DNA from: a virus
DNA length: 64,000 nucleotides
Strand: one strand, 5' to 3'
Virus record (IMG/VR): IMGVR_UViG_3300026521_000471
Span: 122,518-186,517 of that record
Part shown: positions 1 to 59,301 of the stretch, in pieces
Position numbering within the stretch: the first letter of the stretch is position 1
Layout of the letters: each line of letters starts with the position of its first letter
Notes under the pieces: model-generated
The model's database searches: none
Told to the model about the DNA's origin: nothing
The model's input: the letters and a program-made list of their open reading frames with translations, nothing else
Position numbers and translations under genes: made by a program

Positions 1-834
1 CAAACTCTAATCGTTAATAAATTGAAAGGTGTTATTTCTGTTTGTGCTATTGATGCACCTGGTTTTGGTGCTAGAAAAAAAGAATATCTAAAAGATATTG
101 CTGCAATGGTAGGAGCTGAGTTCGTATCTGCTGATTTAGATATTTCTATTGAACAAATTACAGCCGATATGATGGGTTCATGTGAAAAAGCGATTATATC
201 AAAATTTGATACAACATTAGTAAATAGTCAACCTAGAGGAACATCAAAAGATGATAGATTAGCGGAGTTACAAGGTCAAATCAAAGTTGCTGATAATCAA
301 TATGATATTGAATTTTATAAAGAACGTATTGCTAAAATGACTGGCGGTGTAGCTGTTATTCGAGTTGGTGGTGCTTCAGAAACAGAAGTTGAAGAGAAAA
401 AAGATAGGGTCGATGATGCTCTTGGTGCTACTCATGCAGCAGTTGAAAGTGGTATTGTAATTGGCGGTGGATGTGCATTATTACATGCTGCCGAAAGTGT
501 AAATGTTAAAGATTTAAATATTGCTAATTCTGATGAAGCTGCGGGTGTACAAATTATATTAGAAGCTATCAAACAACCACTTAAATTAATTGTTGAAAAT
601 GGTGGAGGAAGTGGAGATTTTGTATCTGAAACTGTTATTAGAAATACTGATATAGAAGGGTATGGATTTAATGCAGCGACTGAAGAGTATGGCGACCTTT
701 TTGAAATGGGTATTATTGACCCAGTAAAAGTAACAAAATCAGCTCTTAAAAATGCTGCATCAGTTGCTACATTACTACTAACATCAAAAACTATCTTAAT
801 GAAACAAAATCAAGCAACAGCTGTTCATGGCTAA
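1..834 (+). CDS. groEL: Chaperonin GroEL (Hsp60), C-terminal ~277 aa; 5' end lies outside the window
   Basis: Open frame from nt 1. Translation QTLIVNKLKGVISVCAIDAPGFGARKKEYL...GGVAVIRVGGASE...GIVIGGGCALL...GIIDPVKVT matches the GroEL C-terminal half motif by motif. Confidence 0.9.
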   Translation, partial: QTLIVNKLKGVISVCAIDAPGFGARKKEYLKDIAAMVGAEFVSADLDISIEQITADMMGSCEKAIISKFDTTLVNSQPRGTSKDDRLAELQGQIKVADNQYDIEFYKERIAKMTGGVAVIRVGGASETEVEEKKDRVDDALGATHAAVESGIVIGGGCALLHAAESVNVKDLNIANSDEAAGVQIILEAIKQPLKLIVENGGGSGDFVSETVIRNTDIEGYGFNAATEEYGDLFEMGIIDPVKVTKSALKNAASVATLLLTSKTILMKQNQATAVHG

Positions 835-22536: not shown

Positions 22537-23946
22537 TTATTTAAAGTTTTTTAATTCTATTTTTTCAACCTCAAATGGGTATTGAGCCTCTTTATAAAAA
22601 TCTTTTCTAGATTTTATATGTTTTTTATCATATTTTAAATTAGATGTTATATCAATTACTGTAACATGTTCTTTCTGTCCAGATTTTCTTCTAAGCCCTC
22701 TTCCAATCGATTGTATAACTTTTGTAAAACTTTTTCCAGGTGTAGGTGCAAGAATTAAGTTGTTAATATGTACAATATCAATTCCAGTACTAAGTAATGA
22801 ATATGTTCCAACTGTTACTAAATTACCACCATAAACGAATTCATTAAATTTCTCTTGTCTTTTATCAACCGTTAATTTTGAACTAATATAACCACACTCT
22901 AGAAATTCTGATAAATCTTCAGCCGGATCTATATTCTTCATCAATATCAATGTGTTACCTTCTAATGAATCAACAATGGCTTTCATTAATTTTTGAAACA
23001 TTTCATTACTTTGTAAAAAAACAGTCTCTTCATGCCAGTCAATAAATGAGCCTAAATATTCTTTAGGGTAAACCAATTCAAAAATATTAATATCTATTGA
23101 AGATAATATATTTCTCTTTTGTAATTCATGTGCTTTTACATCATAAACCACAGGACCAAAACCAGCTGTTAAATTAGCTTTGTCTAAAGGATCTTTTGGC
23201 ACAGTACCCGTCAAACCTATTCTCAAATATGAATTTTTTGCCTCATTCATAATTTGTTGAGCTACATATGCTTTAGCGCCATGTACTTCATCCCATATCA
23301 CACATTCAAAATCTCGTATAAAATGTTTATTATTTTGTAGTGTTTGCCAAGTAGCCACAATATTAATTTCATTATCTTTTTTACCACTACCAAACATACC
23401 GACAGGAATATCAAATTGTTTTATATAATCAAATGTCTGTTTTAACAATGATGATGATGGTACAATGACAATCGTTTTCATATTTAGTTTATTGGCATAT
23501 TTAACGATAGCTGATGTCAATAAGGTATTATGATGAACTGTTCCATTTGCTATTTGATATAAATGATTTTCAGAATTAACTTCGACATCATATAATAAAC
23601 CCTGTTCATTTAGATTCTCTATATTTGTAACTACTGCCATATGTTTTTCATCAACATTATATAATCTATCACCTATAGACAATTCATTGACTTTTTTTAT
23701 AGTTTGGTCATCTAACATTAAGATATGATTATCAGTAGTTATTATATTCTCTATTGCATCAATCTCTAGCTTTATTAAATTATCCTCTTTTACAATAAGA
23801 CCTTTAATATCAACCCATTTACCGACCTCATCTTGAATTTGAATTGGTGTACGTTGAAAATATTCCTCATCTCTACGAAATGCAATATCTTCTTCTAACG
23901 ATATTATTTTAAATAATTGTTCAAAAGTTAATTCTATTTCTTCCAT
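22537..23946 (-). CDS. C-terminal fragment of a split SF2 (UvsW-like) DNA helicase: 137-aa C-intein (IntC) followed by helicase motifs Ia-VI
   Basis: A TAA lies immediately upstream of the ATG. Residues 1-137 carry intein block B (TTDNHILM) and blocks F/G (LLYDVEVNSENHLYQIANGTVHHN). The +1 Thr then starts TLLTSAIVKYA...TIVIVPSSSL (motif Ia), DEVH (motif II), GLTGT (motif III) and QSIGRGLRR (motif VI). The P-loop (motif I) is absent and is found in the N-fragment at 39479..40027. Confidence 0.8.
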   Translation of the reverse strand: MEEIELTFEQLFKIISLEEDIAFRRDEEYFQRTPIQIQDEVGKWVDIKGLIVKEDNLIKLEIDAIENIITTDNHILMLDDQTIKKVNELSIGDRLYNVDEKHMAVVTNIENLNEQGLLYDVEVNSENHLYQIANGTVHHNTLLTSAIVKYANKLNMKTIVIVPSSSLLKQTFDYIKQFDIPVGMFGSGKKDNEINIVATWQTLQNNKHFIRDFECVIWDEVHGAKAYVAQQIMNEAKNSYLRIGLTGTVPKDPLDKANLTAGFGPVVYDVKAHELQKRNILSSIDINIFELVYPKEYLGSFIDWHEETVFLQSNEMFQKLMKAIVDSLEGNTLILMKNIDPAEDLSEFLECGYISSKLTVDKRQEKFNEFVYGGNLVTVGTYSLLSTGIDIVHINNLILAPTPGKSFTKVIQSIGRGLRRKSGQKEHVTVIDITSNLKYDKKHIKSRKDFYKEAQYPFEVEKIELKNFK

Positions 23947-26024: not shown

Positions 26025-26624
26025 TCAATTATAAGGTTCTATATTAAATTCTTCAAATAGAACCTTAAGCCCAACAGTTAATTTTCCCGACTTTGGAAAG
26101 TCAGGAAATTTTTTCTTTCGTCCACTCAATCCATATTCTTTTTTTAATTTATTATAATTTCGTTTAGATACCTTTTGAGCTTTTGGTTCTTCTGATGGAT
26201 GTATATAAAAATTTCCTTCTTCATCTTGATATGCACCAGCTTCTAAATAATCTGCTAAATTTCGTAAAAAATCTGGCAAACTGATCGGGTGGTTAGTTTC
26301 ATCTGCTCCGAAATATCTTTTCCAGTTATTTGTGATTTTTCCTTCCATTGCATTTGCCCTAAACTCTAAAGCATTTCTAATCGTACCTTTTTGTTCAGAA
26401 CATTCTTCATTTTTTAATTTATGAATATGATCTAATACCATTTTATCGAGTTCAACCTCAATTCCTAATAATGGACATATTTTATTATTTTCTAACCATA
26501 ATTTTTCTTTTAATTCTTTTATATTTTTCTGTTTTAATTGTATTAATTGTTTCATAGTTTTATTTATATGATAAAAATTGTAAAATTGATATAAAAAAAA
26601 TAAGGTTTTGTAATGGATGAGCAA
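26025..26624 (-). CDS. putative His-Me finger nuclease (HNH / T4 endonuclease VII-like)
   Basis: ICPLLG...VLDHIHKL...EEC loosely resembles the endo VII CxxC...HLDHDHEL core. Free-standing on the minus strand between plus-strand genes. Confidence 0.35.
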   Translation of the reverse strand: MLIHYKTLFFLYQFYNFYHINKTMKQLIQLKQKNIKELKEKLWLENNKICPLLGIEVELDKMVLDHIHKLKNEECSEQKGTIRNALEFRANAMEGKITNNWKRYFGADETNHPISLPDFLRNLADYLEAGAYQDEEGNFYIHPSEEPKAQKVSKRNYNKLKKEYGLSGRKKKFPDFPKSGKLTVGLKVLFEEFNIEPYN

Positions 26625-28034
26625 ATAGATGATACAGAATATGAAGACGCTTTAGCCGAATTAGAGGCAGAATCATCTTCAAAAAAGAAAAAGAAGAAAA
26701 AAACAGTTGAACATTCAGAAGGCAAACTATTAGATATTGAAGATAAAGAACGAATTTTACTTGCTCAACTTATTAATAACCCAGAATTATTTGTTAAAGG
26801 TATAACTTTTCTAGATAAAGATTTCTTTGAATCAAAAATTAATAAATTAATTGTGGAATTTATGATTGATTATTATGATTTATATAAAAGTATCCCGCCT
26901 GAAGATGCTATACTATTAGAATTAAATTTAGATAACGTACATGATGATTGGTTAGATATAAATAAACCTTGGCCAACAGAGTATCTTGAAGACTATTTAA
27001 ATGCGTTTATAAAAAATATGAGTATGAAAGGTGCTATCGAAGATAGTATTGAATTACTAGAAGAAGAAGATTATGGAACTATTGAGAAGAAGATTAAAGA
27101 TGCTGTAAACGTTGATATTGATACAAAGTTAGGTGTAACCATAGATACTGATAAAGATAATTTTCGTGACTTATTTAAAATGCTAACATCAACTGAAGCT
27201 ACAATTCCAACTGGATGGTGGAACGTAGATGATAAATTAGATGGTGGTGTAACAATACCAAGTTTAAATTATTTATTAGCTAAATCTGGTGGTGGTAAAT
27301 CAATAGGTTTAATAAATTTAGCATGGAATTATATTCAGATGAAAAGGGATGTTATTTATATTTCTCTAGAACTAAAGGAAGAGAAAATCATGAAGAGGTA
27401 TATAACCCACTCAACTAAAATTCCGACCCATCAAATTGAAAAGTCTGAGATGGAAATTTATAACCATCTAAAGAAATGTGATAATAAGGGGTATGGTCGA
27501 TTTACTGTTCATTTCTATCAACCCAATACACTAAGTGCAATGAAGTTGGAATTATTTGTAAGAAATTATTTACAAAAATATAATACAGTACCTATTATTA
27601 TTCTAGATTATGCAGGTTTAATGACACCAAATGGTAAAAATTGGCAAGGTATGTTTGAAAAAGATAAATATGTTTCTGAAGAATTAAGAGCTGTGGCAAC
27701 GTTATTTGATACGATCGTTTGGACAGCAGACCAATATAATAGATGTATATCATTTGGTGAACAGGTAATAACACCGAATGGTAAAAAAAATATTGAAGAT
27801 GTTGAAATAGGGGATAAAGTTCTTGGGGGCAATAATAGTTATCGTACTGTAACAGCGATAACGGAGCCGGAAGAACAAGAAGTATATAAAATTACTTTAA
27901 AAAGTGGAAAAACTATCAAAGTATCAGGAAGACATATCTTCCCAAAAGTTTTAGAAGATGGGAAATTAGTAGAAGATTGCATATTATCTTCATTAAGTAT
28001 AGGTGACAAGTTGGTGGTCTCCGATAAAATATGA
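26613..28034 (+). CDS. DnaB / T4 gp41-like replicative helicase N-extein, interrupted after the QxNR motif by the N-terminal half of a classical split intein (IntN ~99 aa)
   Basis: TGWWNVDDKLDGG...LLAKSGGGKSIGLINLA (Walker A), IIILDYAGLM (Walker B), ...WTADQYNR. This is followed by CISFGEQVITPNGKKNIEDVEIGDKVLG (intein block A), TLKSGKTIKVSGRHIFP (block B) and ...SIGDKLVVSDKI, then a stop. Confidence 0.75.
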   Translation: MDEQIDDTEYEDALAELEAESSSKKKKKKKTVEHSEGKLLDIEDKERILLAQLINNPELFVKGITFLDKDFFESKINKLIVEFMIDYYDLYKSIPPEDAILLELNLDNVHDDWLDINKPWPTEYLEDYLNAFIKNMSMKGAIEDSIELLEEEDYGTIEKKIKDAVNVDIDTKLGVTIDTDKDNFRDLFKMLTSTEATIPTGWWNVDDKLDGGVTIPSLNYLLAKSGGGKSIGLINLAWNYIQMKRDVIYISLELKEEKIMKRYITHSTKIPTHQIEKSEMEIYNHLKKCDNKGYGRFTVHFYQPNTLSAMKLELFVRNYLQKYNTVPIIILDYAGLMTPNGKNWQGMFEKDKYVSEELRAVATLFDTIVWTADQYNRCISFGEQVITPNGKKNIEDVEIGDKVLGGNNSYRTVTAITEPEEQEVYKITLKSGKTIKVSGRHIFPKVLEDGKLVEDCILSSLSIGDKLVVSDKI

Positions 28035-29333: not shown

Positions 29334-31511
29334 ATGGATGTTAAATATTTTTTAGAAAAATTAGGAAGTTTATTAATTATTGGATTTGTTATTATATCCA
29401 CGTCTATTATACTTTATTTTAGCTATAAGTCAAATAATAAAGATATTATGGATGACATTGACAATAATTTACGCCACGAATTGATTATTTTATCTATTGC
29501 GTCCGAAGATTTGTTTAACAAATATAACAATATACTTACAATGTTAGGGGATAATATTTTATCCAAAGATAATAAACAAAAATATTTAGATACAGCATTA
29601 AAATTAGAAACTGATGCAGTGGGCTATGGTTTTATATCACCCGAAGGTAATATATTAATTAACTCCTCAAACGTCGATATAAAGAAGATCTCTAATTTTA
29701 TCTCCAACCCCAAAACTAAAGGAACATTTCTTAAAACTATAAAATCAAAATCATCAATTTTAGGACGGTCATATTTATTTAAACCGACAAATCAATTAAT
29801 TGTACCAATAAGAAAAAGTATTAGGAAAAATTCAAAAGTATATGGTGTACTAGCGGTAGGCATTAATATAAATAAGTCGTTTTCTAATTTATTTACAAAT
29901 AAAATACATAACAATTCTATAATTTTATTAATCAAAAATAACTCAGCTAGAATTCAATATTCAAACGATAATACGTTCGAAATAGATTCTATTTTAAAAA
30001 CCGATAATCCTCGACTTTTTAAAACTATAAATCAAATGACATTGACTAATACATCATTAAATAATATAAAATATAGGGTAGGTGTAAAATTTATTGAAAA
30101 ATACAATCTATGGCTTGTTATAGGCTTTCCTTCAAAAGTTATATCTTCATTAAAAAATGAATGGTTAATAAATGCTGTATCTATATGGTTTGTTTTTAAC
30201 GTAAGTTTTATTATAATGATATTAATTATTAATAAGATTAATAACGATCGGAAAAATGAATTGGAATATATTTCTATACATGATCCATTAACACATATTG
30301 GAAATAGATATTATTTAAATAAGAAAATAGTCGATTACGAAGAATATAGTATGCTATTTTTAGATCTAGACAATTTTAAATTTATAAATGATAACTTCGG
30401 ACATAATTACGGAGATAAATTTTTAGTTTCTATAGCAACAGAACTTAAAAAAAATATTTCTGCTGATGATTTATTAATACGTTTTAGTGGTGATGAATTT
30501 ATAATTATTACTAGGGAAATGAATAAAGATAAATTATTAAGTTTTGCTAAAAGATTATTGAATATGACTAATGAGAAATTTAAATATGAGCATAAGACAA
30601 CCATGAGTATTGGTATTGCACAACGAGAGGGATCTGAAGATCTACATAATGTAAAATATAAAGCAGATTTAGCTTTATATATAGCAAAAGAAGAACTAAA
30701 CACCATTATATTCTATGATAAAAATATAGAAGAATCATTTAAAGAAGAACATTTAATAGAAAATGAACTATTAGAAGGTATTATTTTAAAAGAAATTTTC
30801 ATGGTTTATCAACCACAATTAAATACTAAAAATAAAATCGTAGGAATAGAAGCATTAGTTCGATGGAATAATTCAAAGTTAGGTTATATAAATCCCGAGA
30901 CATTTATCAAAATCGCTGAAAAAAATGGAAATATGATAATTTTAGGTGATCATATATTAAATCAAGTTTTTAGTGATATTAATACATTTAAAAATATAAT
31001 TCCAGATAATTTTAATATATCTATTAATATTTCTGTTAAACAATTTATGGAAGATAACTTTGTACAAAAATTAAAGGATAAATTATACCAATATAAAGTC
31101 AATCCAAATAATATCACATTAGAAGTAACAGAAAATATATTTATTTTAGATTTAAACTATATGGAACAAATAATAAATGATTTGCATACATTGGGTGTAA
31201 AAATTTCTATTGATGATTTTGGAACAGGATACTCTTCTTTATCTTCTGTTAAACATCTGACTATTGATGAAATAAAGATTGATAAATCTTTTGTAGATAA
31301 TATTGAAAACGACCATAGTTCCAAAAGTATGGCTGAAGTAATTATTAAAATGAGTAAAATTTTTAATACCATTATTTTAGCTGAAGGTATAGAAAATATC
31401 AAACAAAAAGAAATTCTTGATAACTTAGGGTGCGATTTCTACCAAGGATATTACTTTTCAAAACCTTTACCATTAACAAAATTAAAAGAGTTCATAAAAA
31501 ATAATATTTAA
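29334..31511 (+). CDS. membrane-anchored sensor protein with GGDEF (SGDEF variant) and EAL domains (c-di-GMP cyclase/phosphodiesterase family)
   Basis: Two predicted transmembrane segments flank a ~250-aa extracytoplasmic region. GGDEF domain: HDPLTHIGNRYYL, LDLDNFKFINDNFGHNYGDKFL, RFSGDEF. EAL domain: EALVRW, LEVTENI, DDFGTGYSS, KIDKSFV, AEGIEN, QGYYFSKP. Confidence 0.8.
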   Translation: MDVKYFLEKLGSLLIIGFVIISTSIILYFSYKSNNKDIMDDIDNNLRHELIILSIASEDLFNKYNNILTMLGDNILSKDNKQKYLDTALKLETDAVGYGFISPEGNILINSSNVDIKKISNFISNPKTKGTFLKTIKSKSSILGRSYLFKPTNQLIVPIRKSIRKNSKVYGVLAVGININKSFSNLFTNKIHNNSIILLIKNNSARIQYSNDNTFEIDSILKTDNPRLFKTINQMTLTNTSLNNIKYRVGVKFIEKYNLWLVIGFPSKVISSLKNEWLINAVSIWFVFNVSFIIMILIINKINNDRKNELEYISIHDPLTHIGNRYYLNKKIVDYEEYSMLFLDLDNFKFINDNFGHNYGDKFLVSIATELKKNISADDLLIRFSGDEFIIITREMNKDKLLSFAKRLLNMTNEKFKYEHKTTMSIGIAQREGSEDLHNVKYKADLALYIAKEELNTIIFYDKNIEESFKEEHLIENELLEGIILKEIFMVYQPQLNTKNKIVGIEALVRWNNSKLGYINPETFIKIAEKNGNMIILGDHILNQVFSDINTFKNIIPDNFNISINISVKQFMEDNFVQKLKDKLYQYKVNPNNITLEVTENIFILDLNYMEQIINDLHTLGVKISIDDFGTGYSSLSSVKHLTIDEIKIDKSFVDNIENDHSSKSMAEVIIKMSKIFNTIILAEGIENIKQKEILDNLGCDFYQGYYFSKPLPLTKLKEFIKNNI

Positions 31512-31568
31512 GTTAATTATAAGTTTATTTTGTATATAATAAAACCTAATAAAAATTTAGGAGTTAGA

Positions 31569-32492
31569 ATGGAAAAACTTATGAAGACCATTGGATGGTC
31601 AGTAGTACTAGGTATTGGCCTTGTTATAATCTTAGGATTTATGGCAATCACAAAAACTGGATTTGCAATTGTAAATGACGGTGAAAGAGGCGTTATGAAA
31701 ACAGGTACAAAATATGATATGACGGAAGTACAACCCGGTTATCATTTCTTTATACCAATCTATCAGAGTATTGAGATAGACACGATTCGTCCAAAACTTA
31801 TTAATTATTCAAGAACAGAAGCAAACAAAGAAGATTCTGAATTACTTATTTTTGAACCGGTTCTTAAAGGTTTAGATAAAAAAGGTATTCCTATTGAGTT
31901 AGCTTTAAGTATTGAAGTAAAACCCGTAGCAGATCAACTAGCTGAAATGTATAAGAATGATGGTGATTTTGAAAATGCATTCTATAAAAAAGTTAAGCAG
32001 GTAAATAGAGAGGCCGTACAAGCTACAATTTCTAGATTTAGTGTTGATACTATTATGGATAAAAGACCTGAAGTTGAAAAGTATCTTACAGAAAAACTTA
32101 ATGAAAGTTACTCTAAAAACCCATATTTTAAATTGGTAAATATCAATCTTAAAGATATTATAGTGCCAAAAGAGATCGCTGATAAGATGTTAGAAGTTCA
32201 ATCGGCTAAACAAGATGCTCTCAAATCACAAGAGTTAATTAAGAAAGCACAAAATGAAGCTAAAGCGAGAGAAGCTAAAGCTCAAGGTGAAGCTAATGCA
32301 GTTAAAATTGCGGCACAAGGTAGAGCTGATGCTATTTTAGTCGAGGCTAATGCCCAATCAAAAGCTAATAAATTACTTAGTGCATCATTAACTGATAAGG
32401 TTATTAAAATTCAAACCGTTGAAAAGTGGAATGGTTCTGTACCTACTTATGTTGGTGGAGAAAATTCACAATTTATTATGGATATGAAATAA
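31569..32492 (+). CDS. SPFH / band-7 domain protein (HflC/prohibitin-like)
   Basis: The ORF-track start at 31530 is a TTG inside the TGTATATAAT promoter. ATG 31569 follows TTAGGAG. One N-terminal transmembrane helix, an SPFH core, and an Ala/Lys-rich coiled C-terminus (KAQGEANAVKIAAQGRADAILVEANAQ). Confidence 0.7.
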   Translation: MEKLMKTIGWSVVLGIGLVIILGFMAITKTGFAIVNDGERGVMKTGTKYDMTEVQPGYHFFIPIYQSIEIDTIRPKLINYSRTEANKEDSELLIFEPVLKGLDKKGIPIELALSIEVKPVADQLAEMYKNDGDFENAFYKKVKQVNREAVQATISRFSVDTIMDKRPEVEKYLTEKLNESYSKNPYFKLVNINLKDIIVPKEIADKMLEVQSAKQDALKSQELIKKAQNEAKAREAKAQGEANAVKIAAQGRADAILVEANAQSKANKLLSASLTDKVIKIQTVEKWNGSVPTYVGGENSQFIMDMK

Positions 32493-32824: not shown

Positions 32825-33940
32825 TTGGCTTTACCAAAAAAGAAAAAAATTTTTTCTATCCCACTTAACCCGTACACTTCAAAAGAAGACTTTGAAAACA
32901 TCTTTGTTCCATTCTTAAAAAAGAATGCCGATTGGATTTATGATGTATATTTTACAAGTAGAATCCCACCATTTATGCAAGATGCAATGGGAGCAAATTT
33001 TGATAATAATTCATTAGTACAAATTTTTAATAATGCTATGGCATTAGAACAAGCTACAGGAGTTAGAGTTTCAGCAACTTTCAATAATGTTAATGTTCCA
33101 CCTACTGCAGAGAATTTAGAAATATTTTGTTCAAATCTACAATTTTTATATGATGCAGGACTCAGAAGCATGACACAACCACACAATCATTGGATGATGA
33201 CCGGTGTATTTAAAGAAAAATTTCCCGAATTACAAGTAAAGAATACAGTTTTAAAAAGAGTTGCTACAGCACAAGACTTTTGGACTGCATGTGAAGCAGG
33301 TTATGATTATATTAATATTGATAGAATTCTTTTGCGTGATGAAGAAATGCTAAAGAGAATTAAAAAAGCCCAACTTAAATTTGAAAAAGAAACTGGAAAA
33401 TATGTACCTATCGCATTACTTGCTAATGAAGGGTGTAGAGGTAAATGTCCGGTAATGAATGAACATTATACAATTAATAATGCTAGTGGTAGCAAACAAC
33501 CAGGAACAGACAAACCATATTTTTATCAAAAAATTAGTGAAGTTAGTTGCCCTAAATGGAGATTAGAAGATCCTGCTTATTCATTCAAAATAGGCAACAT
33601 ACCACCATATCGAGAAGATTTTGAAAGACTTTTAGAGTATGTAGATGTAATAAAAACTCATGGTAGAGAAGGGTTTGGACTACTAAATGATACTATCAAA
33701 TTCATTGAGAGTTATATTAATGGTGATGAAGAATTACATGACATTTCAATTAGAGGTCAAATTGAAGATTTAAAAGTCGACCAAAATAAATTGCAATTAT
33801 GGCGAAAACATATTAGAACGTGTCAATTTGAATGTTGGGATTGTCATCTTTGTGATGAACTAGTAGCATCAGCTCAAAAAAAGAAGGATAAAGATTTAGG
33901 TACATCAATAGATGATTTAATAAATTCATATGAAGGATAA
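32825..33940 (+). CDS. hypothetical Cys-rich protein (possible TIM-barrel/metalloenzyme)
   Basis: TTG start after AAGGAG (6-nt spacer). Cys clusters CRGKCPV...C and CQFECWDCHLC. Confidence 0.45.
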   Translation: MALPKKKKIFSIPLNPYTSKEDFENIFVPFLKKNADWIYDVYFTSRIPPFMQDAMGANFDNNSLVQIFNNAMALEQATGVRVSATFNNVNVPPTAENLEIFCSNLQFLYDAGLRSMTQPHNHWMMTGVFKEKFPELQVKNTVLKRVATAQDFWTACEAGYDYINIDRILLRDEEMLKRIKKAQLKFEKETGKYVPIALLANEGCRGKCPVMNEHYTINNASGSKQPGTDKPYFYQKISEVSCPKWRLEDPAYSFKIGNIPPYREDFERLLEYVDVIKTHGREGFGLLNDTIKFIESYINGDEELHDISIRGQIEDLKVDQNKLQLWRKHIRTCQFECWDCHLCDELVASAQKKKDKDLGTSIDDLINSYEG

Positions 33941-40314: not shown

Positions 40315-40517
40315 TGATAACTGAAATTATAAGATTTAACTGTCATGTATTAAAGGTAAATAAATATAACAAAATAACTCCTGATGAATTGTTATTAGAA
40401 TATAAAACTCGTAACAACCTTATTTTAGAAAATACGGAAGTATATGTTGAAAGCTGTAAATGGGCTGCTGGAAGTACTAGTACTATTATAACAAAAGTGA
40501 AAAGGATAGAAAAATGA
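40314..40517 (+). CDS. hypothetical small protein
   Basis: ORF track. Confidence 0.35.
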   Translation: MITEIIRFNCHVLKVNKYNKITPDELLLEYKTRNNLILENTEVYVESCKWAAGSTSTIITKVKRIEK

Positions 40518-40963
40518 CTTATGCTCAAAATAAAAAGGCTAGATTTAATTATGAAATCATAGAAATATTTGAAGCAGGGATTGTACTAACAGGTGGTGAA
40601 GTAAAATCTGTAAGAGATAGTACAATTTCTCTTAAAGAAAGCTATGTTAAAATAAAAAATAATGAATTATTTTTAACTCAAGCTCATGTTTCAGTCCCTA
40701 CATACATACCATCATATGCAGTATTTGATGAAGTCCAAGATAGAAAATTGTTAATGCATAAAAGAGAGATTTTAAAACTTAAAAATAAATTGAAAGAACA
40801 GGGTTTGACTTTAATTGTATTATCAATTTATCAACGTGAAGGCACAAAAAAGATAAAAGTACAGTTGGCATTAGCTAGAGGTAAAAAATTATATAATAAA
40901 AAACAAACTATCAAAGAACGTGATATTAAACGAGATATGGAAAGAACATTAAAAAAATTCTAA
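40514..40963 (+). CDS. smpB: SsrA-binding protein SmpB
   Basis: KKARFNYEIIEIFEAGIVLTGGEVKSVR...LLMHKREILKLKNKLKEQGLTLIVLSIYQREGT.KIKVQLALARGKKLYNKKQTIKERDIKRD aligns along its full length with bacterial SmpB. Confidence 0.85.
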   Translation: MTYAQNKKARFNYEIIEIFEAGIVLTGGEVKSVRDSTISLKESYVKIKNNELFLTQAHVSVPTYIPSYAVFDEVQDRKLLMHKREILKLKNKLKEQGLTLIVLSIYQREGTKKIKVQLALARGKKLYNKKQTIKERDIKRDMERTLKKF

Positions 40964-46102: not shown

Positions 46103-48793
46103 ATGAATAAAATTAAAACACAAGTACATACTATAATAATGCTTATTGGACCTAGTGGTTCTGGTAAAACAACATTCGCTAATGAAATTCTAATACCCAC
46201 ATTACAAGAATATAAAGGTAGTGGAAATGACAATTTAAAAACAAATATACAATATATTAGTTCTGATGATATTAGAAAAGATATTTTAGGATATAATTAT
46301 AGTAAAATAGATGAAATTATGACTGAAAGTTCAACACAAGCATTTGAAATATTATTTACAAAATTAAGAGCTGTTACTAGTTATCCAATCAATGCTGAAT
46401 TTGTTATTTTAGATACAACTGGATTAAGTGAAAAATTTAGAAATGATGTTTTAGATATAGCAAAAGATAATAATTATAATGTCGATATTATAGTTTTCGA
46501 TTATAAGAATATTGATGAATATCAGAAAAATTTTTCTGATGAAGTTTATCAACAACCTAGTACTAATGGCAAAATTATTTCTAAGCATATAAAAAGATTA
46601 AAAACAGAAACATTAAAAACATTAAAAAAAGGTGTATATAAAAATATTCATAAAATTAAAAATAAAGATTTTCTTTTAGAAGTTGAACAGGAGAATCCAT
46701 ATGATTTAACACCTACTATGTTAAAACCTCTTTATAGTGTAGATGTATGGGATTGGAAAAAATATACTGATAGAATATTAAATAGTACTTATGATTGGAT
46801 TACTATTGGTGATGTTCATGGATGTATTCATGAATTAAAACAATTACTTGAAAAATATGGTTTTATAATTGAAGACAATGAAATCATAGATACAAACAAA
46901 ACAAAAAATATAGGATTGATTTTTGCAGGTGATTTAATTGATAAGTCGTCAGAAGAAGATTTAACTGAAACTATAAGATTTATACATAAAAATATGATAA
47001 AATTTCAAGATCGTTTTCAATTAATATTAGGTAATCATGAAGAGATGGTCTGGAAATGGATAACAAATCATAAAGATTTAGAAATTACTCCAGAACGATT
47101 GGATCAGAAAAAAAGATACTATAATACAGCAATTTTACTAGAGAAAAATGAAGAGTTAAAATCTATGTTTTTAGATATTTTTCATAATATGAAAGGTTGG
47201 GTTAAATTTATAGGATTAAACAAAAGAAGTTTTGTAGTTACACATGCACCATGTGAGGTTAAATATCTCGAAAAAATGGATCGTATTTCATTAAAACGTC
47301 AATATAAATGCGCTAGTAGAAGTAAAAACAAAGATAAGACTAATGATGAACTAACACCATATTTAAAAGAAGAAGCAGTTAATAACCATCCAGTTCACAT
47401 ATTTGGTCATATGGGACAATCATCTGTTAGATCTTTTAAAAATAAAGTTTGTATTGATACAGGCTGTGTATATGGTGGAAGATTAACTGGATACAGTATA
47501 GGATACGGTAAACCATTTATTCAAAGTGTAAAATCATTATCTCCTAAGAGTGCAAGAAACGACTTTGGAAATAATCTATTTGAAGATATAGGTAAAGCTA
47601 TAAAAGAAGTATCTATTGAAGATTTAAATCCATACAACCAAAAAAGATTAGATTATATAGTAAAAAATGGCATAGGATACATAGGAGGTACAATTTCACC
47701 TTCAAATAAAAACATCGAAAAAAATTCACTAGAATCTTTAGATAGTGGACTTAATTATTTCAAAGATAAAGTAGATAGTGTAGTTCTACAACCTAAATAT
47801 ATGGGGTCTAGAGCACAACTGTATCTCTTTAAAGATAATATTGAAAAATGCTATGCTACAAGTAGAAATGGATATAAAATTAGAGAGGACTTAACTGATT
47901 TATTCTCATCTAAATTAATAGAATACAAGCATATTTTTGATATGTATAATGCTGATGAGATAATTATAGATGGTGAATTATTACCATGGGCTCTTTTAGG
48001 AAAAGGTTTGATAGAAACACATTTTAAAACTGCGGATATAGCTATCCAAACAGAAATCGACTTTCTGGATGATAATGGGTTTGATAAGGCTTTTTTAAGT
48101 TTAAAGGATGAATTTAATGAATCAGAATTTTTAAAAGATAAAAATATTTTAGCTAAAAAAGAATTAGCTAAAAAATATGGTCACAAATATCACTCTTATA
48201 AAGATTTAAAATTTGAAATTGATAGATTCATACCTTTAAGTAAACACAAAAAAGCTTGGAAAATTTTCAATAAACAAATAACCCTTTATGGAGATGATAC
48301 AAATACAGATTTTAAAGGTTTTAGATTATTAAAAGTAATATCAAATAACAATATAATCGATTTGGATCTAACCCCTAGCGAACACTTTAAACTATTAAAT
48401 TCAGATGATATTCATATTGTTGATTTCAATGATAAAGACTATTTAGTTAAAGCTGAAAGATGGTATGATGATTTAGTGAGTAATCAAAATATGGAAGGTT
48501 GTGTAATAAAACCGGAAGTAAAGTTATTAGAATCTTGGATTGCTCCATATTTAAAAGTAAGAAATGAAGAATATCTTTCTATCATTTATGGGTATGATTA
48601 TAAATTCCCTGTCAAATTTAATAGATTATTAAATCAAAAAAATATTTCTAAAAAATTAAGACTCTCTATATCAGAGTATAAATTAGGAGAAGAAATGCTT
48701 AAAGCTCCTATGGGTAGTAAAGAACAAATACAGATTATAGCCAATCTATTATTTGAAAATGAAAAAGAAGAAAGCGTCGATCCAAGATTATAA
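46103..48793 (+). CDS. pnkp: bacterial-type polynucleotide kinase-phosphatase-ligase (Pnkp): P-loop 5'-kinase, metallophosphatase, and adenylyltransferase/ligase domains
   Basis: IMLIGPSGSGKTTFAN (kinase P-loop). ITIGDVHGC, IFAGDLIDK and LGNHEE (calcineurin-like phosphatase). C-terminal ...VVLQPKYMGSRAQLY (nucleotidyltransferase KxxG motif I). At 896 aa with this domain order it matches Clostridium-type Pnkp. Confidence 0.85.
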   Translation: MNKIKTQVHTIIMLIGPSGSGKTTFANEILIPTLQEYKGSGNDNLKTNIQYISSDDIRKDILGYNYSKIDEIMTESSTQAFEILFTKLRAVTSYPINAEFVILDTTGLSEKFRNDVLDIAKDNNYNVDIIVFDYKNIDEYQKNFSDEVYQQPSTNGKIISKHIKRLKTETLKTLKKGVYKNIHKIKNKDFLLEVEQENPYDLTPTMLKPLYSVDVWDWKKYTDRILNSTYDWITIGDVHGCIHELKQLLEKYGFIIEDNEIIDTNKTKNIGLIFAGDLIDKSSEEDLTETIRFIHKNMIKFQDRFQLILGNHEEMVWKWITNHKDLEITPERLDQKKRYYNTAILLEKNEELKSMFLDIFHNMKGWVKFIGLNKRSFVVTHAPCEVKYLEKMDRISLKRQYKCASRSKNKDKTNDELTPYLKEEAVNNHPVHIFGHMGQSSVRSFKNKVCIDTGCVYGGRLTGYSIGYGKPFIQSVKSLSPKSARNDFGNNLFEDIGKAIKEVSIEDLNPYNQKRLDYIVKNGIGYIGGTISPSNKNIEKNSLESLDSGLNYFKDKVDSVVLQPKYMGSRAQLYLFKDNIEKCYATSRNGYKIREDLTDLFSSKLIEYKHIFDMYNADEIIIDGELLPWALLGKGLIETHFKTADIAIQTEIDFLDDNGFDKAFLSLKDEFNESEFLKDKNILAKKELAKKYGHKYHSYKDLKFEIDRFIPLSKHKKAWKIFNKQITLYGDDTNTDFKGFRLLKVISNNNIIDLDLTPSEHFKLLNSDDIHIVDFNDKDYLVKAERWYDDLVSNQNMEGCVIKPEVKLLESWIAPYLKVRNEEYLSIIYGYDYKFPVKFNRLLNQKNISKKLRLSISEYKLGEEMLKAPMGSKEQIQIIANLLFENEKEESVDPRL

Positions 48794-51448: not shown

Positions 51449-52402
51449 ATGGAAAAAATAGAAACACTAACCGATATGGTAGAAGTAATCAGAGAAATAA
51501 AAACACCGACAAGTCAAAAAGCTAATATGGTTGTAGGAAATATTAGAGCACAAATTAAAAATTACGTACAACGTAATAATCTTAAATCACTTGTAGTAGG
51601 TGTGAGTGGGGGTCTTGATTCAGCTGTTGTAGCGGCTCTTTGTCAAGAAGAATTTACAGGAGTACCTCTAATTGGTCTTTCTATTCCTATGAGTTCAACT
51701 AACGCTCACAAAGAACAGGCAGAATGGGTAGGTAATACCTTTTGTACGGCTTTTGAAGAATTCAACTATTGGGATGAAACTTTTCAGTACAATGAAGAAG
51801 AAGGTACTGATATGATGAGTGAAGTATTTAATACCGTTTCAGCAACAGATAAAGTTGCTGAAAAAGCAGGATTTAAAACGGAAGATTTTCCAAAAAATGT
51901 TCTTCAAGGTAATATTAAAGCGAGGCTTAGAATGATAACTCTTTATGACCTTGCAAGAAAAACAAACGGTATGGTTCTTTCAACAGATAACCTTTCTGAA
52001 TTTCAAATGGGATTTTGGACTATTTGTGGTGATGTAGGTGATTTTGGACCTATCCAAAATGTTGGTAAGGGGTTTGAGCTTCCAGCCATAGCAAGAGCTC
52101 TTGGAATAAGAGCAGATATTATCACTCAATCGCCTAGTGATGGACTAATGGTAACTGAAGAAAATACAGATGAGGCTCAACTTGGAGCTAATTATGAGGA
52201 AGTTGATACTATTATGAGTATTTATCTTGGCAATATCAATAAACCAAAAGAAATTATAGATAAACTTAAAAGTAACCTATTTAATATTATTAATGATAAA
52301 AAGAGTGCTAAGAAAATTTCAAATGTAATTACACGTTATGAAAATTCACACTTTAAACGTAATGGTACAATCAACCTTACAAGAGAACAGATCGGAATCT
52401 AA
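51449..52402 (+). CDS. nadE: NH3-dependent NAD+ synthetase NadE
   Basis: LVVGVSGGLDSAVVAALC (PP-loop), KARLRMITLYDLAR, VLSTDNLSEFQMGFWTICGDVGDFGPIQ and QSPSDGL...LGANYEEVD all align with E. coli NadE. Its length and motifs do not fit QueC. Confidence 0.8.
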   Translation: MEKIETLTDMVEVIREIKTPTSQKANMVVGNIRAQIKNYVQRNNLKSLVVGVSGGLDSAVVAALCQEEFTGVPLIGLSIPMSSTNAHKEQAEWVGNTFCTAFEEFNYWDETFQYNEEEGTDMMSEVFNTVSATDKVAEKAGFKTEDFPKNVLQGNIKARLRMITLYDLARKTNGMVLSTDNLSEFQMGFWTICGDVGDFGPIQNVGKGFELPAIARALGIRADIITQSPSDGLMVTEENTDEAQLGANYEEVDTIMSIYLGNINKPKEIIDKLKSNLFNIINDKKSAKKISNVITRYENSHFKRNGTINLTREQIGI

Positions 52403-53348: not shown

Positions 53349-54488
53349 ATGAAAAAAAGTATGAGAGAAGAATCTTTAGGAACTAGACTTAAAGGTTATG
53401 AAAGAGAGTTTGAATCAGTAATCGATCCAAAGGATTTTATTATTTGTAGAATTGATGGACATAAATTTAGCAAATATACAAAAGGTATGAAAAAACCATT
53501 TGATAAAATGTTGTCAAATACAATGGAGGAAACTACTAAAGACCTTGTTGAAAAATTTGGAGCCGTAACGGGCTATACGCAATCTGATGAAATTTCATTG
53601 GTTTTTGTCCCTCAATTCAAAGAAAGATTAATACCTATTGAAACCAAAGAATTATTTGTTCTTAATGATGAAGAAGCAACCTATAAAGTTTATGACAAAG
53701 AATACAACTTGCTAGGTTCATTAGATATTAGTTATGAAGATATGGATGATGAATATTTCAGTATTAACTTTTGGGTAGTTTCTGATACTAATGATGAAAT
53801 TATCGATCAATGTTCTTGGCAAAATAGAAACTCTAAAACTGAGGCTAAAGCATTAGAAACGCTTTTAAAGTATATCATTAAGAAAGTTGAAATAACAAAT
53901 GAGCAAATTTTTGGAGGAAGAGTTCAGAAATTAACTTCTTTGATTGCGGCATATACTACTATGCAGTTTAATAAACACTTTTCTAAATTTTTAGAAAAAA
54001 CATACGAAGATTATGAAGAAAAATTAGAAAAGGGCGAAATCGATACGAATAGTTTAGAGGCCATGAAATACCTTAAAACAATGGATGAAAAAGTAGGTAA
54101 TGCTTGGTTTGATGCTAGAGTTTATGGCGTATCATCTAAAGAAGAAGCATTTAACAGTATTATGTGGCGAATTCGTGATGCCGAGAAGAACTCTAGATCA
54201 ATGTTTGCACAGACATACTGCTCTCATAAATCGCTATTAGGAAAAAATGGTCTTGAACAGGTTGAATACTGTAAAGAAACTACTGGTAAAGATTGGGAAG
54301 AAGTTGAAGATAAATACAAATATGGCATTTTAGTTAAAAAAGAAAAATATCTTAAACCTATTTCTGAAGGGACTATGGATTATGCTCAAAATGATTTTGT
54401 AGAAAGATCCAGAATTATTAGTTGGGCTGAAAAAATTACTACTTTCTCTGGTGAAAAAGTTGAAATGGTTGTTAGGAAATATAAATGA
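53349..54488 (+). CDS. Thg1-like protein (tRNA-His guanylyltransferase family 3'-5' nucleotidyltransferase)
   Basis: FIICRIDGHKFSKYTKGMKKPFDKMLSNTMEETTKDLVEKFGAVTGYTQSDEISLVF aligns with Thg1 (VVVRLDGRNFHRF...GQSDEYSFVF), including both metal-binding carboxylate motifs. Confidence 0.8.
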   Translation: MKKSMREESLGTRLKGYEREFESVIDPKDFIICRIDGHKFSKYTKGMKKPFDKMLSNTMEETTKDLVEKFGAVTGYTQSDEISLVFVPQFKERLIPIETKELFVLNDEEATYKVYDKEYNLLGSLDISYEDMDDEYFSINFWVVSDTNDEIIDQCSWQNRNSKTEAKALETLLKYIIKKVEITNEQIFGGRVQKLTSLIAAYTTMQFNKHFSKFLEKTYEDYEEKLEKGEIDTNSLEAMKYLKTMDEKVGNAWFDARVYGVSSKEEAFNSIMWRIRDAEKNSRSMFAQTYCSHKSLLGKNGLEQVEYCKETTGKDWEEVEDKYKYGILVKKEKYLKPISEGTMDYAQNDFVERSRIISWAEKITTFSGEKVEMVVRKYK

Positions 54489-54759: not shown

Positions 54760-55188
54760 ATGAAACCTACGTCTATTGGAATTATTCCCTATCGGTTTTC
54801 TGAAAACGGGGTATCTATTCTTTTAATGCGGTCTTCTAAGAAAAATGATAGATTCGATTTTGTTAAAGGTAAGATAGAACCTTATGAAACTAGAGTAGAC
54901 TGTTGTTTACGAGAAGTTCAGGAAGAAATAGGTGTTTCACTTTCCAAAGAAGATTTAGACTTTTCTGTTAAGCAATACAATAAGAAGAAAAATATTGAAT
55001 TATTCTTTATTCATTGGGATAAATATTTGTATAAGCAATTTAAATTAGATGAACGAGAAGTTTTTGAACTAAAATGGTTTAATTTGAATGAAATACCTAC
55101 AATTTCTCAGAACCAACGTTTGATTATTACGAAAATAAATGAAAGATTTAACAAATTACATCAACTACTAAGGAGTAACTATGTTTGA
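54760..55188 (+). CDS. Nudix hydrolase
   Basis: Nudix box GKIEPYETRVDCCLREVQEEIGV. Confidence 0.6.
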   Translation: MKPTSIGIIPYRFSENGVSILLMRSSKKNDRFDFVKGKIEPYETRVDCCLREVQEEIGVSLSKEDLDFSVKQYNKKKNIELFFIHWDKYLYKQFKLDEREVFELKWFNLNEIPTISQNQRLIITKINERFNKLHQLLRSNYV

Positions 55189-57367: not shown

Positions 57368-58771
57368 ATGGCTTTATTAACTTACGATGAAGTATTAGAA
57401 ATCACAAAAATAAATGAAACTTTTAAAATGAAACACCAAAAAATAGGTAACACAGAAATTGCAATGTGTACTTATTTTTTAGCAAATGCAGGTGATTTTT
57501 TTGATGCAAAATTAGATGGCTCTATGGTTAGAGCCACAGAATTAAGAGGTATAACATTTGTAAAAGCTCCAAATTCAGACTGGAAAACATATTTGTTTAT
57601 CGATAAATTTTTTAATATCGGTCAAACAAATGGAACTAATATAACAAATATGGAACTTTCTATCAATGACTCAACTGAAATTTGTAATATTAATAAACTT
57701 TTTATCGATGAAAATGAGAAAACATATCGTGCAATAGATTTAAAGTTAAATATGATTGTTGCTGAATTTGATAGAAATACTGAAACTCATGGGGATTTTT
57801 TTCAAATTTTATCACTAGATAAAAAAGTTTTACCTACATTGAAACCTGAAAATTCTTGGATGTATGAGGATGTAAAAGATTTAGAAATTGTAAGAATTGC
57901 AAATAAAGAAGATGGATCCGCAATAAGATTTCTTTTAATTGAAGGAAAATTAGTGGCTAAAACAAAATTTTCTTTTGAATCAGAACAATGCAAATTAGCT
58001 ATGGAAATAGTTGAAAAAGATCCTAAACTTAAAGCATTTATTTTAACAACTTTAGAGTTTGGATATGCAGCAATTTTTGAAATAGTTTCACCATTTAATA
58101 AAATCGTTTTAACATATCCAGAAACATCTCTTAGATTGTTGCAACTAAGAGATGAAAATAATGATGGGTTATATCTAAATATATATGATAATACATTAGT
58201 AAAAGCATTTAATATCTTGACTGCCAATCAAGAACCTTTATACACACTTGATGAGTTACTTAAATTAAAAGAAACCGTTGAAGATAAAGAAGGTTGGGTA
58301 ATTACATTTGAAAATGGAAAAATGGCAAAGGTAAAAACTGATTGGTATATGTCACTTCATGGTATTTTAACTGATGGGTTAAAAGAACATAAAATAATTG
58401 AAAAGGTTTTAGACGAAACGATTGATGATACTATAGCAATGATACCAGAAGAAAATATTGAAGAACGAGATTTTATTGATGGTATCTCTGAAATTATAAT
58501 TAATCATGTAAATCATTTAGTGTCAGATGCAGAAGCTAAATTTAAAAATTCATGGAATGGAAATAAAAAAGAGTTAGCACTAAAATTTAAGGATGATAAA
58601 CGTGCTTTTCCATATATAATGAGTTTTGCAAATGGAAAAAATATTGAAGAAATTGAAAAACAAGTTATAGATAGAGTTAAATTTGAATGTAGACGTTTAG
58701 AAATGGCTAAACAATACCTTAAAAATTTAGGTTTTGACAAAGAACTCGAAATAAAAATTGAGGATGATTAA
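57368..58771 (+). CDS. rnl1: RNA ligase 1 (T4 Rnl1 / gene 63-like tRNA repair ligase)
   Basis: ELRGITFVKAPNSDWKTYLFIDKFFN, ANKEDGSAIRF (motif I KxDGS), EFGYAAIFEIVSPFNKIVLTYPE and KEGWVITFENGKMAKVKTDWYMSLHG align block by block with T4 Rnl1. Confidence 0.85.
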   Translation: MALLTYDEVLEITKINETFKMKHQKIGNTEIAMCTYFLANAGDFFDAKLDGSMVRATELRGITFVKAPNSDWKTYLFIDKFFNIGQTNGTNITNMELSINDSTEICNINKLFIDENEKTYRAIDLKLNMIVAEFDRNTETHGDFFQILSLDKKVLPTLKPENSWMYEDVKDLEIVRIANKEDGSAIRFLLIEGKLVAKTKFSFESEQCKLAMEIVEKDPKLKAFILTTLEFGYAAIFEIVSPFNKIVLTYPETSLRLLQLRDENNDGLYLNIYDNTLVKAFNILTANQEPLYTLDELLKLKETVEDKEGWVITFENGKMAKVKTDWYMSLHGILTDGLKEHKIIEKVLDETIDDTIAMIPEENIEERDFIDGISEIIINHVNHLVSDAEAKFKNSWNGNKKELALKFKDDKRAFPYIMSFANGKNIEEIEKQVIDRVKFECRRLEMAKQYLKNLGFDKELEIKIEDD

Positions 58772-58773
58772 TC

Positions 58774-58941
58774 ATGAAATACGGTTTTAGTTTATTTGAA
58801 TTAATTATTGTAGTTGTAATATTGGGAATTCTAGCAGCAGTTGCTATTCCTAGATTATCAAATTCTTCATCAAATAATGATAAAATTTCATACAAAAAAA
58901 TAATTTTTACTAATGGTGATGGTGGATCCGCCGAGAATTGA
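58774..58941 (+). CDS. short type IV pilin/pseudopilin-like ORF (55 aa): prepilin leader and N-terminal hydrophobic helix only
   Basis: MKYG|FSLFELIIVVVILGILAAVAIP is a canonical class III signal peptide with Glu at +5. The 3' end overlaps the tmRNA 3' terminus. Not in ORF track because it is under 60 aa. Confidence 0.35.
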   Translation: MKYGFSLFELIIVVVILGILAAVAIPRLSNSSSNNDKISYKKIIFTNGDGGSAEN

Positions 58942-59301
58942 ACTCGGGTCTGCCACTACTTCCATTTAAATCTCATTTACAAGTTTAGTTTGATTTTTAA
59001 TACTTTAATACTTAGATAACCAAACAAATCGGTATTAAAGGCACTTGATATAATTTTCGTCTAAAGGTATCAAGTTTAACTTTAGCTTATCTATTTTTTA
59101 TTATACACTCTGTATTTATTAGTAAATAGACAACTAATAAACTGAGTGATTCCGGGCTCCCAGAGGGAGGATTAAGCAGCTACTCTCGCAGTCTGTGGAA
59201 TATAAAGTTTTGTGTTTGCATTTAAGCTTTTTTGATGATTAAGTCATCACTCTACTTGCAATTTAAATTTCTTATAGCAACATCGATCCCAATTCGGACC
59301 C
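58920..59301 (-). ncRNA. ssrA: tmRNA (SsrA), 382 nt
   Basis: Minus-strand 5' end GGGUCCGAAUUGGGAUCGAUG resembles the tmRNA 5' end GGGGCUGAUUCUGGAUUCGAC. The 3' end is ...CCGAGUUCAAUUCUCGGCGGAUCCACCA (T-arm plus acceptor plus CCA). The acceptor stem pairs with a G3:U70 wobble (alanine identity). An internal tag ORF (59219..59172) reads GCA AAC ACA AAA CUU UAU AUU CCA CAG ACU GCG AGA GUA GCU GCU UAA, giving ANTKLYIPQTARVAA, followed by a CUCCC/GGGAG helix. Confidence 0.8.

Follow-up and report, generated by a model that had tools for sequence, protein, structure and literature searches.

The 64,000-nucleotide stretch of viral DNA analysed here (positions 122,518 to 186,517 of the IMG/VR record IMGVR_UViG_3300026521_000471, hereafter the window) encodes a 725-amino acid (aa) membrane protein that combines a double-Cache (dCache) sensor domain with GGDEF and EAL domains, the domain types involved in synthesis and degradation, respectively, of cyclic di-guanosine monophosphate (c-di-GMP), the signal which governs the switch between the motile and attached states in most bacteria. 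On balance, the protein appears to be an ordinary cellular dCache-GGDEF-EAL receptor that was captured by a jumbo phage of ~220 kb and has been kept under selection, and that would function as a ligand-gated c-di-GMP phosphodiesterase. The phage probably controls the c-di-GMP signal of its host during infection, since the intact and conserved receptor is accompanied by two small synthase-like genes nearby. The protein itself is a biochemically ordinary member of its family, found in an unusual place.

From its N-terminus, the protein comprises a transmembrane (TM) helix, the dCache domain, predicted to be periplasmic, a second TM helix, a GGDEF domain in which the motif reads SGDEF and the RxxD inhibitory site (I-site) is lacking, and an EAL domain with all of its catalytic residues (Table 1). 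An original prediction, made from the nucleotide sequence alone, had proposed a membrane-anchored GGDEF-EAL open reading frame (ORF) at this position and named a domain search as a check. Both Pfam domains were recovered far above their cut-offs on a plus-strand ORF, with residues 315-454 matching PF00990 (E value 9e-31; 107 bits against a gathering score of 23.8) and the EAL domain matching PF00563 over profile positions 2-236 of 236 (E value 3.9e-66; 223 bits against a gathering score of 31.3). Hydropathy analysis places a loop of ~245 aa between the two TM helices, in agreement with the extracytoplasmic region of ~250 aa that had been proposed. No equivalog was found for the 725-aa protein in the NCBIfam search, where the named phosphodiesterase and cyclase models all scored far below cut-off; the five best matches, likewise far under their cut-offs, are all named phosphodiesterases. 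An identical protein (100 %) is encoded on a 140,120 bp ENA contig and a 224,467 bp JGI contig, and of 22,178 positions compared, 277 differ between the ENA contig and the window, none of them inside the GGDEF-EAL gene. The guanine plus cytosine (GC) content of the gene (23 %; 16.5 % at third codon positions) is near that of the other phage genes (phage average 27 %), and the gene is thus not a recent insertion. A repeat search between 28 and 33 kb of the window returned only AT-rich chance matches. The original observation is thus confirmed, with a correction to the start coordinate of the downstream gene, which is described below.

A catalytic inventory was compiled by aligning the protein with 18 full-length homologues, comprising 17 bacterial proteins and the copy found in a related phage (hereafter the sister phage). 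The four EAL strings quoted in the original prediction were all located (EALVRW, residues 506-511; DDFGTGYSS, 627-635; KIDKSFV, 648-654; EGIEN, 684-688), and the catalytic Glu and Asp residues are intact on alignment. No variation was seen at E506, R510, E529, N565, E597/E600, D627/D628, K648, E684/E687 or Q704, either across the family (19 homologues) or between the two phages. The roles of these positions (the E of EAL, R, E, N, ExxE, DD, K, ExxE and Q) in metal and substrate binding are established in the literature. The loop 6 signature DFG(T/A)GYSS is likewise intact (DDFGTGYSSLS, residues 627-637). Judged by these residues, the EAL domain is predicted to be fully competent.

The GGDEF domain departs from the canonical form at two positions. 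As had been noted in the original prediction, S385 replaces the first Gly of the motif (SGDEF, residues 385-389), and SADD occupies the position five residues before the motif where RxxD is expected; the I-site, a frequent though dispensable feature of active cyclases, is missing across the whole family of aligned homologues. Residues D344, N352, D361, R383, D387 and E388 are retained, the first four of which we take to correspond to the Mg and guanine ligands D327, N335, D344 and R366 of PleD. The SGDEF motif is common to the nearest bacterial relatives (alignment members P0003, P0006, P0007, P0008 and P0014), and it thus appears to have been inherited from these rather than to represent degeneration within the phage. 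The second departure is at position 455, just before N456, which presumably corresponds to the phosphate-contacting R446 in the PleD structure. A Lys or Arg is found here in 17/17 of the aligned bacterial homologues, while the phage protein has Leu and the sister phage protein Gln, such that the loss is confined to the phage copies in the alignment. The SGDEF motif alone does not imply an inactive domain, since the SGDEF protein MbaA is reported to synthesise c-di-GMP in vivo (PMC8079147), and active SGDEF and AGDEF enzymes have been reported (PMC8079147; PMC3974145), although the departure from GG(D/E)EF makes activity less likely.

The periplasmic region constitutes a full dCache sensor, which the original prediction had not recognised. 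The Pfam dCache_1 match to residues 58-263 (E value 2e-5; 24.6 bits) lies under the gathering score of 45, and many homologues of the protein carry a precomputed PF02743 match. An AlphaFold (AF2) model of residues 31-275, built from an alignment of 49 homologues, showed a long N-terminal helix (H2-47) followed by two alpha/beta modules, with a mean predicted local distance difference test score of 91.4 and a predicted template modelling score of 0.87. Foldseek comparison of this model against the PDB gave E values of ~1e-11 and template modelling scores of 0.65-0.77, and the top matches were all dCache ligand-binding domains, including those of Tlp3, PctA, Mlp24, DctB and CtaA; their owners are chemoreceptors, kinases and one diguanylate cyclase. 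The amino acid-binding dCache_1AA domains share the motif YxxxxRxWY ... Y ... D (PMC8915833). The YxxxxRxWY element was sought in the periplasmic domain and is absent, with a single Trp (residue 260) occurring there, and the ligand is thus probably not an amino acid.

The sister phage, represented by a 221,509 bp JGI contig (3300026484 Ga0256837_1000002) as well as Logan and ENA fragments, keeps the block of HD_4, orf172, GGDEF-EAL and SPFH genes in which the receptor is located. The GGDEF-EAL proteins of the two phages are 83 % identical, and the ratio of nonsynonymous to synonymous substitution rates (dN/dS; Nei-Gojobori) for the gene is 0.133 at a dS of 0.66, with values of 0.166 for the periplasmic domain, 0.121 for the EAL domain and 0.089, the lowest within the gene, for the GGDEF domain. 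The neighbouring genes have dN/dS values of 0.012 to 0.107, and the GGDEF-EAL gene is thus somewhat less constrained. On the strength of these ratios all domains are under purifying selection, and the gene is considered to be functional in the phages.

The matches that rank next behind the sister phage are full-length and of the same architecture, with 33-39 % identity over 90-98 % of the length. The nearest cluster of homologues (37-39 % identity), which also carry SGDEF, is annotated as Halarcobacter/Arcobacter, and the chromosomal dCache-SGDEF-EAL proteins of the Arcobacteraceae (Halarcobacter sp. WP_417324324.1 and Arcobacter sp. F155 WP_129083266.1; the P0006 cluster) are the best cellular matches. 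These resemble the phage copy in their full-length architecture (~750 aa), SGDEF motif, lack of an I-site and identical invariant EAL residues. The phage copy differs from them by a deletion of ~25 residues close to the membrane within the periplasmic domain and by the loss of the Lys/Arg before N456, and it adjoins an SPFH gene in a phage genome, whereas the bacterial copies occur among housekeeping genes. The contexts of three homologues inspected beyond the phage pair are those of ordinary bacterial chromosomal genes with no SPFH neighbour, and one related bacterial locus has a GC content of ~26 %. In a neighbour-joining tree the phage pair is placed on a long branch. Capture from an Arcobacteraceae-like host is likely given these affinities, and the host of the phage is probably a member of the Arcobacteraceae. 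A scan of genome contigs with the family alignment returned generic GGDEF-EAL proteins among the matches listed, and the donor lineage was not identified in it. A scan of IMG/VR yielded 229 relatives, with neither this phage nor its sister among them; many of these GGDEF-EAL matches sit at the ends of predicted viral regions, while four contigs of more than 100 kb carry GGDEF-EAL genes, two with PAS domains. Large contigs labelled viral which carry such genes include L126, L143, L086, L110 and L156 (93-259 kb), with PAS domains occurring in the GGDEF-EAL genes of L126 and L086, and a GC content of 25 % in L126 and L143. No clear phage functions were found in the scanned flanks of L126, L086, L110 and L156, and none of the five contigs shares genes with the window.

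The DNA surrounding the receptor gene looks like that of an uncultured jumbo phage of the T4 superfamily, ~220 kb in size. The original description of the genome as phage-like is well supported by the gene content, which includes phage-type genes for replication, nucleotide metabolism and counter-defence but none for cellular housekeeping. The locus was assembled independently as contigs of 140-224 kb, its GC content averages 27 % (25-31 % throughout the window), and nearly all genes are on one strand. PHROG and Pfam matches include GroEL (Cpn60), MazG, a metallophosphoesterase, a T4-type topoisomerase II, PhoH, a DnaB-like helicase, UvsW_N, a T5 dNMPase, a dCTP deaminase, an NAD-dependent ligase, a PD-(D/E)XK exonuclease and a sigma factor. 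The GGDEF-EAL gene is flanked on both sides, on the same strand, by phage-type genes, among them those for the DnaB-like helicase, dCTP deaminase and DNA ligase. The closest relatives of the topoisomerase are those of jumbo myophages (Atu_ph07 and RaK2-like; 34 % identity). Megablast of 24 kb against the GenBank phages gave no match, and the phage thus has no close cultured relative in this collection.

Beyond the receptor, two stand-alone GGDEF proteins of 249 and 192 aa, both with a canonical motif and scoring above the Pfam cut-off, are encoded on the same phage contig, one on either side of the window, which brings the number of GGDEF-domain genes in the phage to three. For the 249-aa protein, alignment with a solved GGDEF protein extends across the full domain and the motif residues are retained; the gene for this protein adjoins one for a nicotinate phosphoribosyltransferase (NAPRTase), and the sister contig encodes an orthologue with 84 % identity. 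A c-di-GMP riboswitch was sought with Rfam in the window and its two flanks, where the only match was a transfer-messenger RNA (tmRNA). Tentatively, the three genes may be viewed as a complete ligand-gated c-di-GMP circuit installed by a lytic jumbo phage, in which two cyclases supply the signal and the dCache phosphodiesterase reads a cue from outside.

A mechanism can be proposed on the basis of these features. During infection the protein would enter the inner membrane of the host, with the dCache domain in the periplasm and the GGDEF and EAL domains in the cytoplasm. A small ligand, other than of the type recognised by the amino acid motif, would bind the dCache module, and the signal would travel via the second TM helix and a short helical linker to alter the activity of the cytoplasmic dimer. 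Hydrolysis of c-di-GMP by the EAL domain would probably be the dominant output, while the SGDEF domain, which keeps the residues for binding guanosine triphosphate (GTP) and has lost two canonical positions, would most likely be a GTP-sensing regulatory domain and at most a weak cyclase. Together with the two stand-alone canonical GGDEF proteins, the receptor would let the phage set the c-di-GMP level of the infected cell, and in this way control motility, matrix or surface structures, which could favour the spread of infected cells or block superinfection.

Parts of this arrangement have counterparts in characterised systems. The degenerate GGDEF domain of Caulobacter CC3396/PdeA binds GTP and activates the EAL phosphodiesterase (PMC8079147). 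The phage protein is similar in that a non-canonical GGDEF domain with nucleotide-binding residues stands beside a competent EAL domain. Its module is attached to a transmembrane dCache sensor, whereas CC3396 is reportedly soluble. The best match among solved structures is the GGDEF-EAL fragment of Pseudomonas aeruginosa MorA (4rnh; E value 6.7e-66; residues 313-715), with which all motif positions align and the EAL domain aligns end to end. In MorA the GGDEF motif is canonical, and a Lys stands where the phage protein has L455; in the MorA variant 4rnf, Asn-Asn takes the place of the two Asp of the 4rnh DDFGTG motif. MbaA, of the NspS-MbaA polyamine sensor of Vibrio cholerae, is located in the inner membrane, combines a periplasmic domain with SGDEF and EAL-type domains in the cytoplasm, and is reported to be bifunctional (PMC8079147). 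The likeness to MbaA is one of analogy, drawn from descriptions, rather than of orthology. MbaA has an EVL motif and works with an adjacent periplasmic binding protein, NspS, whereas the phage protein has EAL. No gene for an nspS-like periplasmic binding protein was found near the GGDEF-EAL gene, and the upstream orf172 is without family match.

Domains of the c-di-GMP type on cultured phage genomes have been reviewed (PMC10333796), and few c-di-GMP elements were known on phages according to a 2023 review. In the Cariaco Basin, a Mu-like viral contig has been reported to carry a diguanylate cyclase (PMC7785012), while PB1-like phages encode peptides which bind the host cyclase YfiN (PMC8085984). 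Among the matches listed from the GenBank phage collection, the complete cultured genomes encode GGDEF-only proteins, namely those of Bacillus phage G (gp350) and the YuA-like Pseudomonas phages (YuA gp44), and a partial EAL match occurs in an Escherichia phage P1 record. The GGDEF-only proteins have no EAL domain, sensor or membrane anchor, and the two small GGDEF genes described here are of the same kind. No complete cultured phage genome with a full GGDEF-EAL hybrid was found among these matches, and the full-length hybrid matches in the collection stem from misfiled bacterial assemblies or short unannotated contigs.

The main rival to a ligand-gated phosphodiesterase, which is considered rather unlikely, is a genuinely bifunctional switch like MbaA, where a periplasmic ligand decides between synthesis by the SGDEF domain and degradation by the EAL domain such that c-di-GMP could be pushed either way. 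It draws support from MorA, the best PDB sequence match, which is reportedly a bifunctional enzyme, and from the retention of D344, N352, D361, R383 and D387-E388. The GGDEF domain is also the most constrained part of the gene, although strong constraint would equally be expected of a GTP-sensing regulatory domain. While SGDEF proteins such as MbaA have been reported to make c-di-GMP in vivo (PMC8079147), it is only in the phage lineage that L or Q stands in place of the conserved Lys/Arg preceding N456, the two canonical GGDEF proteins of the phage could already make c-di-GMP, and no nspS-like partner gene adjoins that of the receptor. Several points nevertheless weigh against the reading of the protein as a captured receptor which acts mainly as a phosphodiesterase. 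Cyclase activity of the SGDEF domain is possible, given that MbaA is reported to be active, and the weight given to the lost Lys/Arg at position 455 presumes its correspondence to R446 of PleD. In addition, ~80 kb were read in all, namely the window and about 10-14 kb past each of its ends (including 7.8 kb reached through P0138), and neither a c-di-GMP receptor or riboswitch nor a virion gene (capsid, portal, terminase or tail) was found therein; the phage assignment, which is strong, thus rests on gene content. Finally, the grouping of the phage pair with the Arcobacteraceae SGDEF clade has a bootstrap value of only 46/100, and capture from an Arcobacteraceae-like host is therefore no more than likely.

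An improbable alternative is that the protein is an anti-defence enzyme, the EAL domain of which destroys c-di-GMP or a related cyclic dinucleotide alarm, such as that of a cyclic oligonucleotide-based antiphage signalling system (CBASS) with a STING-type effector. The EAL domain is fully competent by sequence, and the genome encodes many enzymes which break down nucleotide signals or restore nicotinamide adenine dinucleotide (NAD), including Acb1, a SpoT-type HD hydrolase, MazG, NUDIX, NAPRTase, NAD synthase and NADAR proteins. A simple eraser of signals would, however, have no need of the complete periplasmic sensor and two TM helices which are under purifying selection; the putative c-di-GMP synthases of the phage would counteract the erasure, and a dedicated Acb1 is already present, for which reasons an anti-defence role is less likely. 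The original prediction had suggested that the enzyme could reprogram host biofilm or motility, or interfere with defence signalling; the latter suggestion is weakened in that the protein is built like a sensory receptor of the host. Furthermore, a role for c-di-GMP as an immune signal is known mainly from bacteria without housekeeping c-di-GMP signalling, whereas the Arcobacteraceae relatives carry c-di-GMP signalling genes of the same dCache-GGDEF-EAL family. An artefact, in the form of bacterial DNA mis-assembled into or mis-binned with the phage, or of a decaying passenger gene without function, is very improbable. It might be suspected from the lack of a virion gene in the ~80 kb read, and from the many GGDEF-EAL matches in viral databases which are misfiled bacterial contigs or provirus edges. 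However, the same gene order is present in independent assemblies (the 140 kb ENA and 224 kb JGI contigs, and for the sister phage the Logan and ENA contigs and the 221.5 kb genome), phage-type genes occur on both flanks and the same strand, the gene has a GC content close to the phage average, and the ORF is intact, with a dN/dS of 0.13 at a dS of 0.66.

Table 1. Features of the dCache-GGDEF-EAL locus and companion GGDEF genes. Positions are those of the window, except where a contig (L166, L164) is named.
Feature	Position	Strand	Basis
dCache-SGDEF-EAL membrane protein gene, 725 aa	29334..31511	+	ORF and Pfam
TM helix 1, ~residues 11-30	29364..29423	+	Kyte-Doolittle, 19-residue window, peak 2.32
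dCache sensor, residues 31-275	29424..30158	+	AF2 model and Foldseek; Pfam sub-threshold
TM helix 2, ~residues 279-299	30168..30230	+	Kyte-Doolittle, peak 2.61
GGDEF domain, SGDEF motif	30276..30695	+	Pfam PF00990
EAL domain, complete catalytic set, residues 477-711	30762..31466	+	Pfam PF00563
SPFH/Band-7 membrane protein, 307 aa, one N-terminal TM helix	31569..32492	+	Pfam Band_7, hydropathy
Terminator-like hairpin just after the SPFH stop codon	32507..32529	+	10-pair stem, consensus scan
Stand-alone SpoT/RelA-type HD hydrolase domain, 174 aa	28271..28795	+	Pfam HD_4, E value 1.3e-12
orf172, co-directional upstream ORF, 172 aa	28782..29300	+	Gene calls
Stand-alone GGDEF protein, 249 aa, RFGGDEF	L166:2230-2979, ~5.7 kb upstream of window position 1	+	Pfam
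Stand-alone GGDEF protein, 192 aa, RIGGDEF	L164:3854-4432, ~5.3 kb beyond window position 64000		Pfam

Downstream of the receptor gene, the original prediction had placed an SPFH/band-7 protein. The family stands, with a Pfam Band_7 match (E value 3.9e-20; 73 bits against a gathering score of 23.6) and a match to phrog_200 (E value 2e-39). The TTG at 31530 was rejected in favour of the ATG at 31569, which has a GGAG ribosome-binding site 6 nt upstream and yields 307 aa, the length given by the gene callers; the latter is almost certainly the true start. Hydropathy places the TM helix at ~residues 20-45 of the 320-aa reading. The HflK equivalog was rejected for this protein (38 bits against a cut-off of 159). 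It is 95.8 % identical in the sister phage (dN/dS 0.033) and belongs to the phage SPFH/prohibitin/HflC-like family (phrog_200), homologues of which, with 24-25 % identity, occur in Staphylococcus, Enterococcus, Aeromonas, Alteromonas, Fusobacterium and Lak phages. Genes for SPFH proteins are common in cultured lytic phages, and a pairing with GGDEF-EAL was not seen in these other phages, an incidental observation. The adjacency of the two genes was encountered in the pair of sister phages alone and is therefore no demonstration of a functional connection. The hairpin beyond the SPFH gene is a possible end of the transcription unit, and constitutes weak evidence in that the scan gave two sites against 0.9 expected; no information was gained from the promoter scan, in which 38 sites were found and 38 expected.

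Two co-directional genes precede that of the receptor. The first, two genes upstream and in the same place in the sister phage (dN/dS 0.047), encodes the 174-aa HD protein, which matches the N-terminal region of the NCBIfam spoT_relA model (E value 4.7e-24). This protein resembles the small alarmone hydrolases, and (p)ppGpp or ppApp may be its substrate. The stop codon of the second, orf172, lies 33 nt before the start of the GGDEF-EAL gene; its product is 88 % identical in the sister phage and has no Pfam or NCBIfam match. The most conserved gene of the neighbourhood is a Cys-rich 371-aa ORF (32825-33940, +) with matches to phrog_1458 and phrog_36869, the product of which is 98.7 % identical in the sister phage (dN/dS 0.012).

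Further genes of the phage were observed in the window and its flanks. These include a homologue of the anti-CBASS 2H-phosphoesterase Acb1 (2154-2675, +; Pfam PF23474, E value 1e-33), a tmRNA (58920-59301, -; Rfam, 115 bits) with the tag peptide ANTKLYIPQTARVAA, and SmpB (40514-40963, +; Pfam, E value 1.4e-48). Both chaperonin subunits are encoded, with Cpn60/GroEL at 22-834 (+), the 5' end of which lies before the window, and Cpn10 at ~62016-62291 (-). An NAD synthase (51449-52402, +) and a NUDIX protein (54760-55188), together with a NAPRTase-like protein (L166:815-2179) and NADAR (L166:7381-7896) in the contig flank, suggest an NAD-reconstitution pathway, as used against NAD-depleting defences. 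A cluster of RNA-repair type comprises a PNKP-like kinase/phosphatase/ligase of 896 aa, Thg1, T4 RNA ligase 1 and a TROVE (Ro-like) protein (46103-48793, 53349-54488, 57368-58771 and 59620-61119). The DnaB-like helicase ORF (26613-28034, +) lacks the final third of the DnaB_C profile and ends after ~90 residues of a Hint/intein N-terminal part, while a separate ResIII helicase ORF (22537-23946, -) has at its start a stretch resembling the C-terminal part of an intein; split inteins or interrupted genes may be involved. The C-terminal part that DnaB lacks was not located nearby, and an opposite-strand ORF upstream of DnaB was rejected as this part, having only a weak match to endonuclease VII.

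The genome enlarges the inventory of jumbo phage enzymes that act on nucleotide signals, with Acb1, a SpoT-type hydrolase, MazG and NAD-salvage genes. The interest of the dCache-GGDEF-EAL receptor lies in its location and in the genes which accompany it, with the receptor and at least one of the small GGDEF genes being conserved in the sister phage, and it provides a concrete and cloneable case for studying how infected cells are reprogrammed. Should the more tentative view of a complete circuit hold, the virus would encode a receptor for an extracellular signal, by means of which it would sense the environment and steer either the infected cell, in terms of motility, attachment and receptor display, or its own timing. 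Provided that the protein is active, a central behavioural signal of the host would be under viral control and coupled to an extracellular cue.

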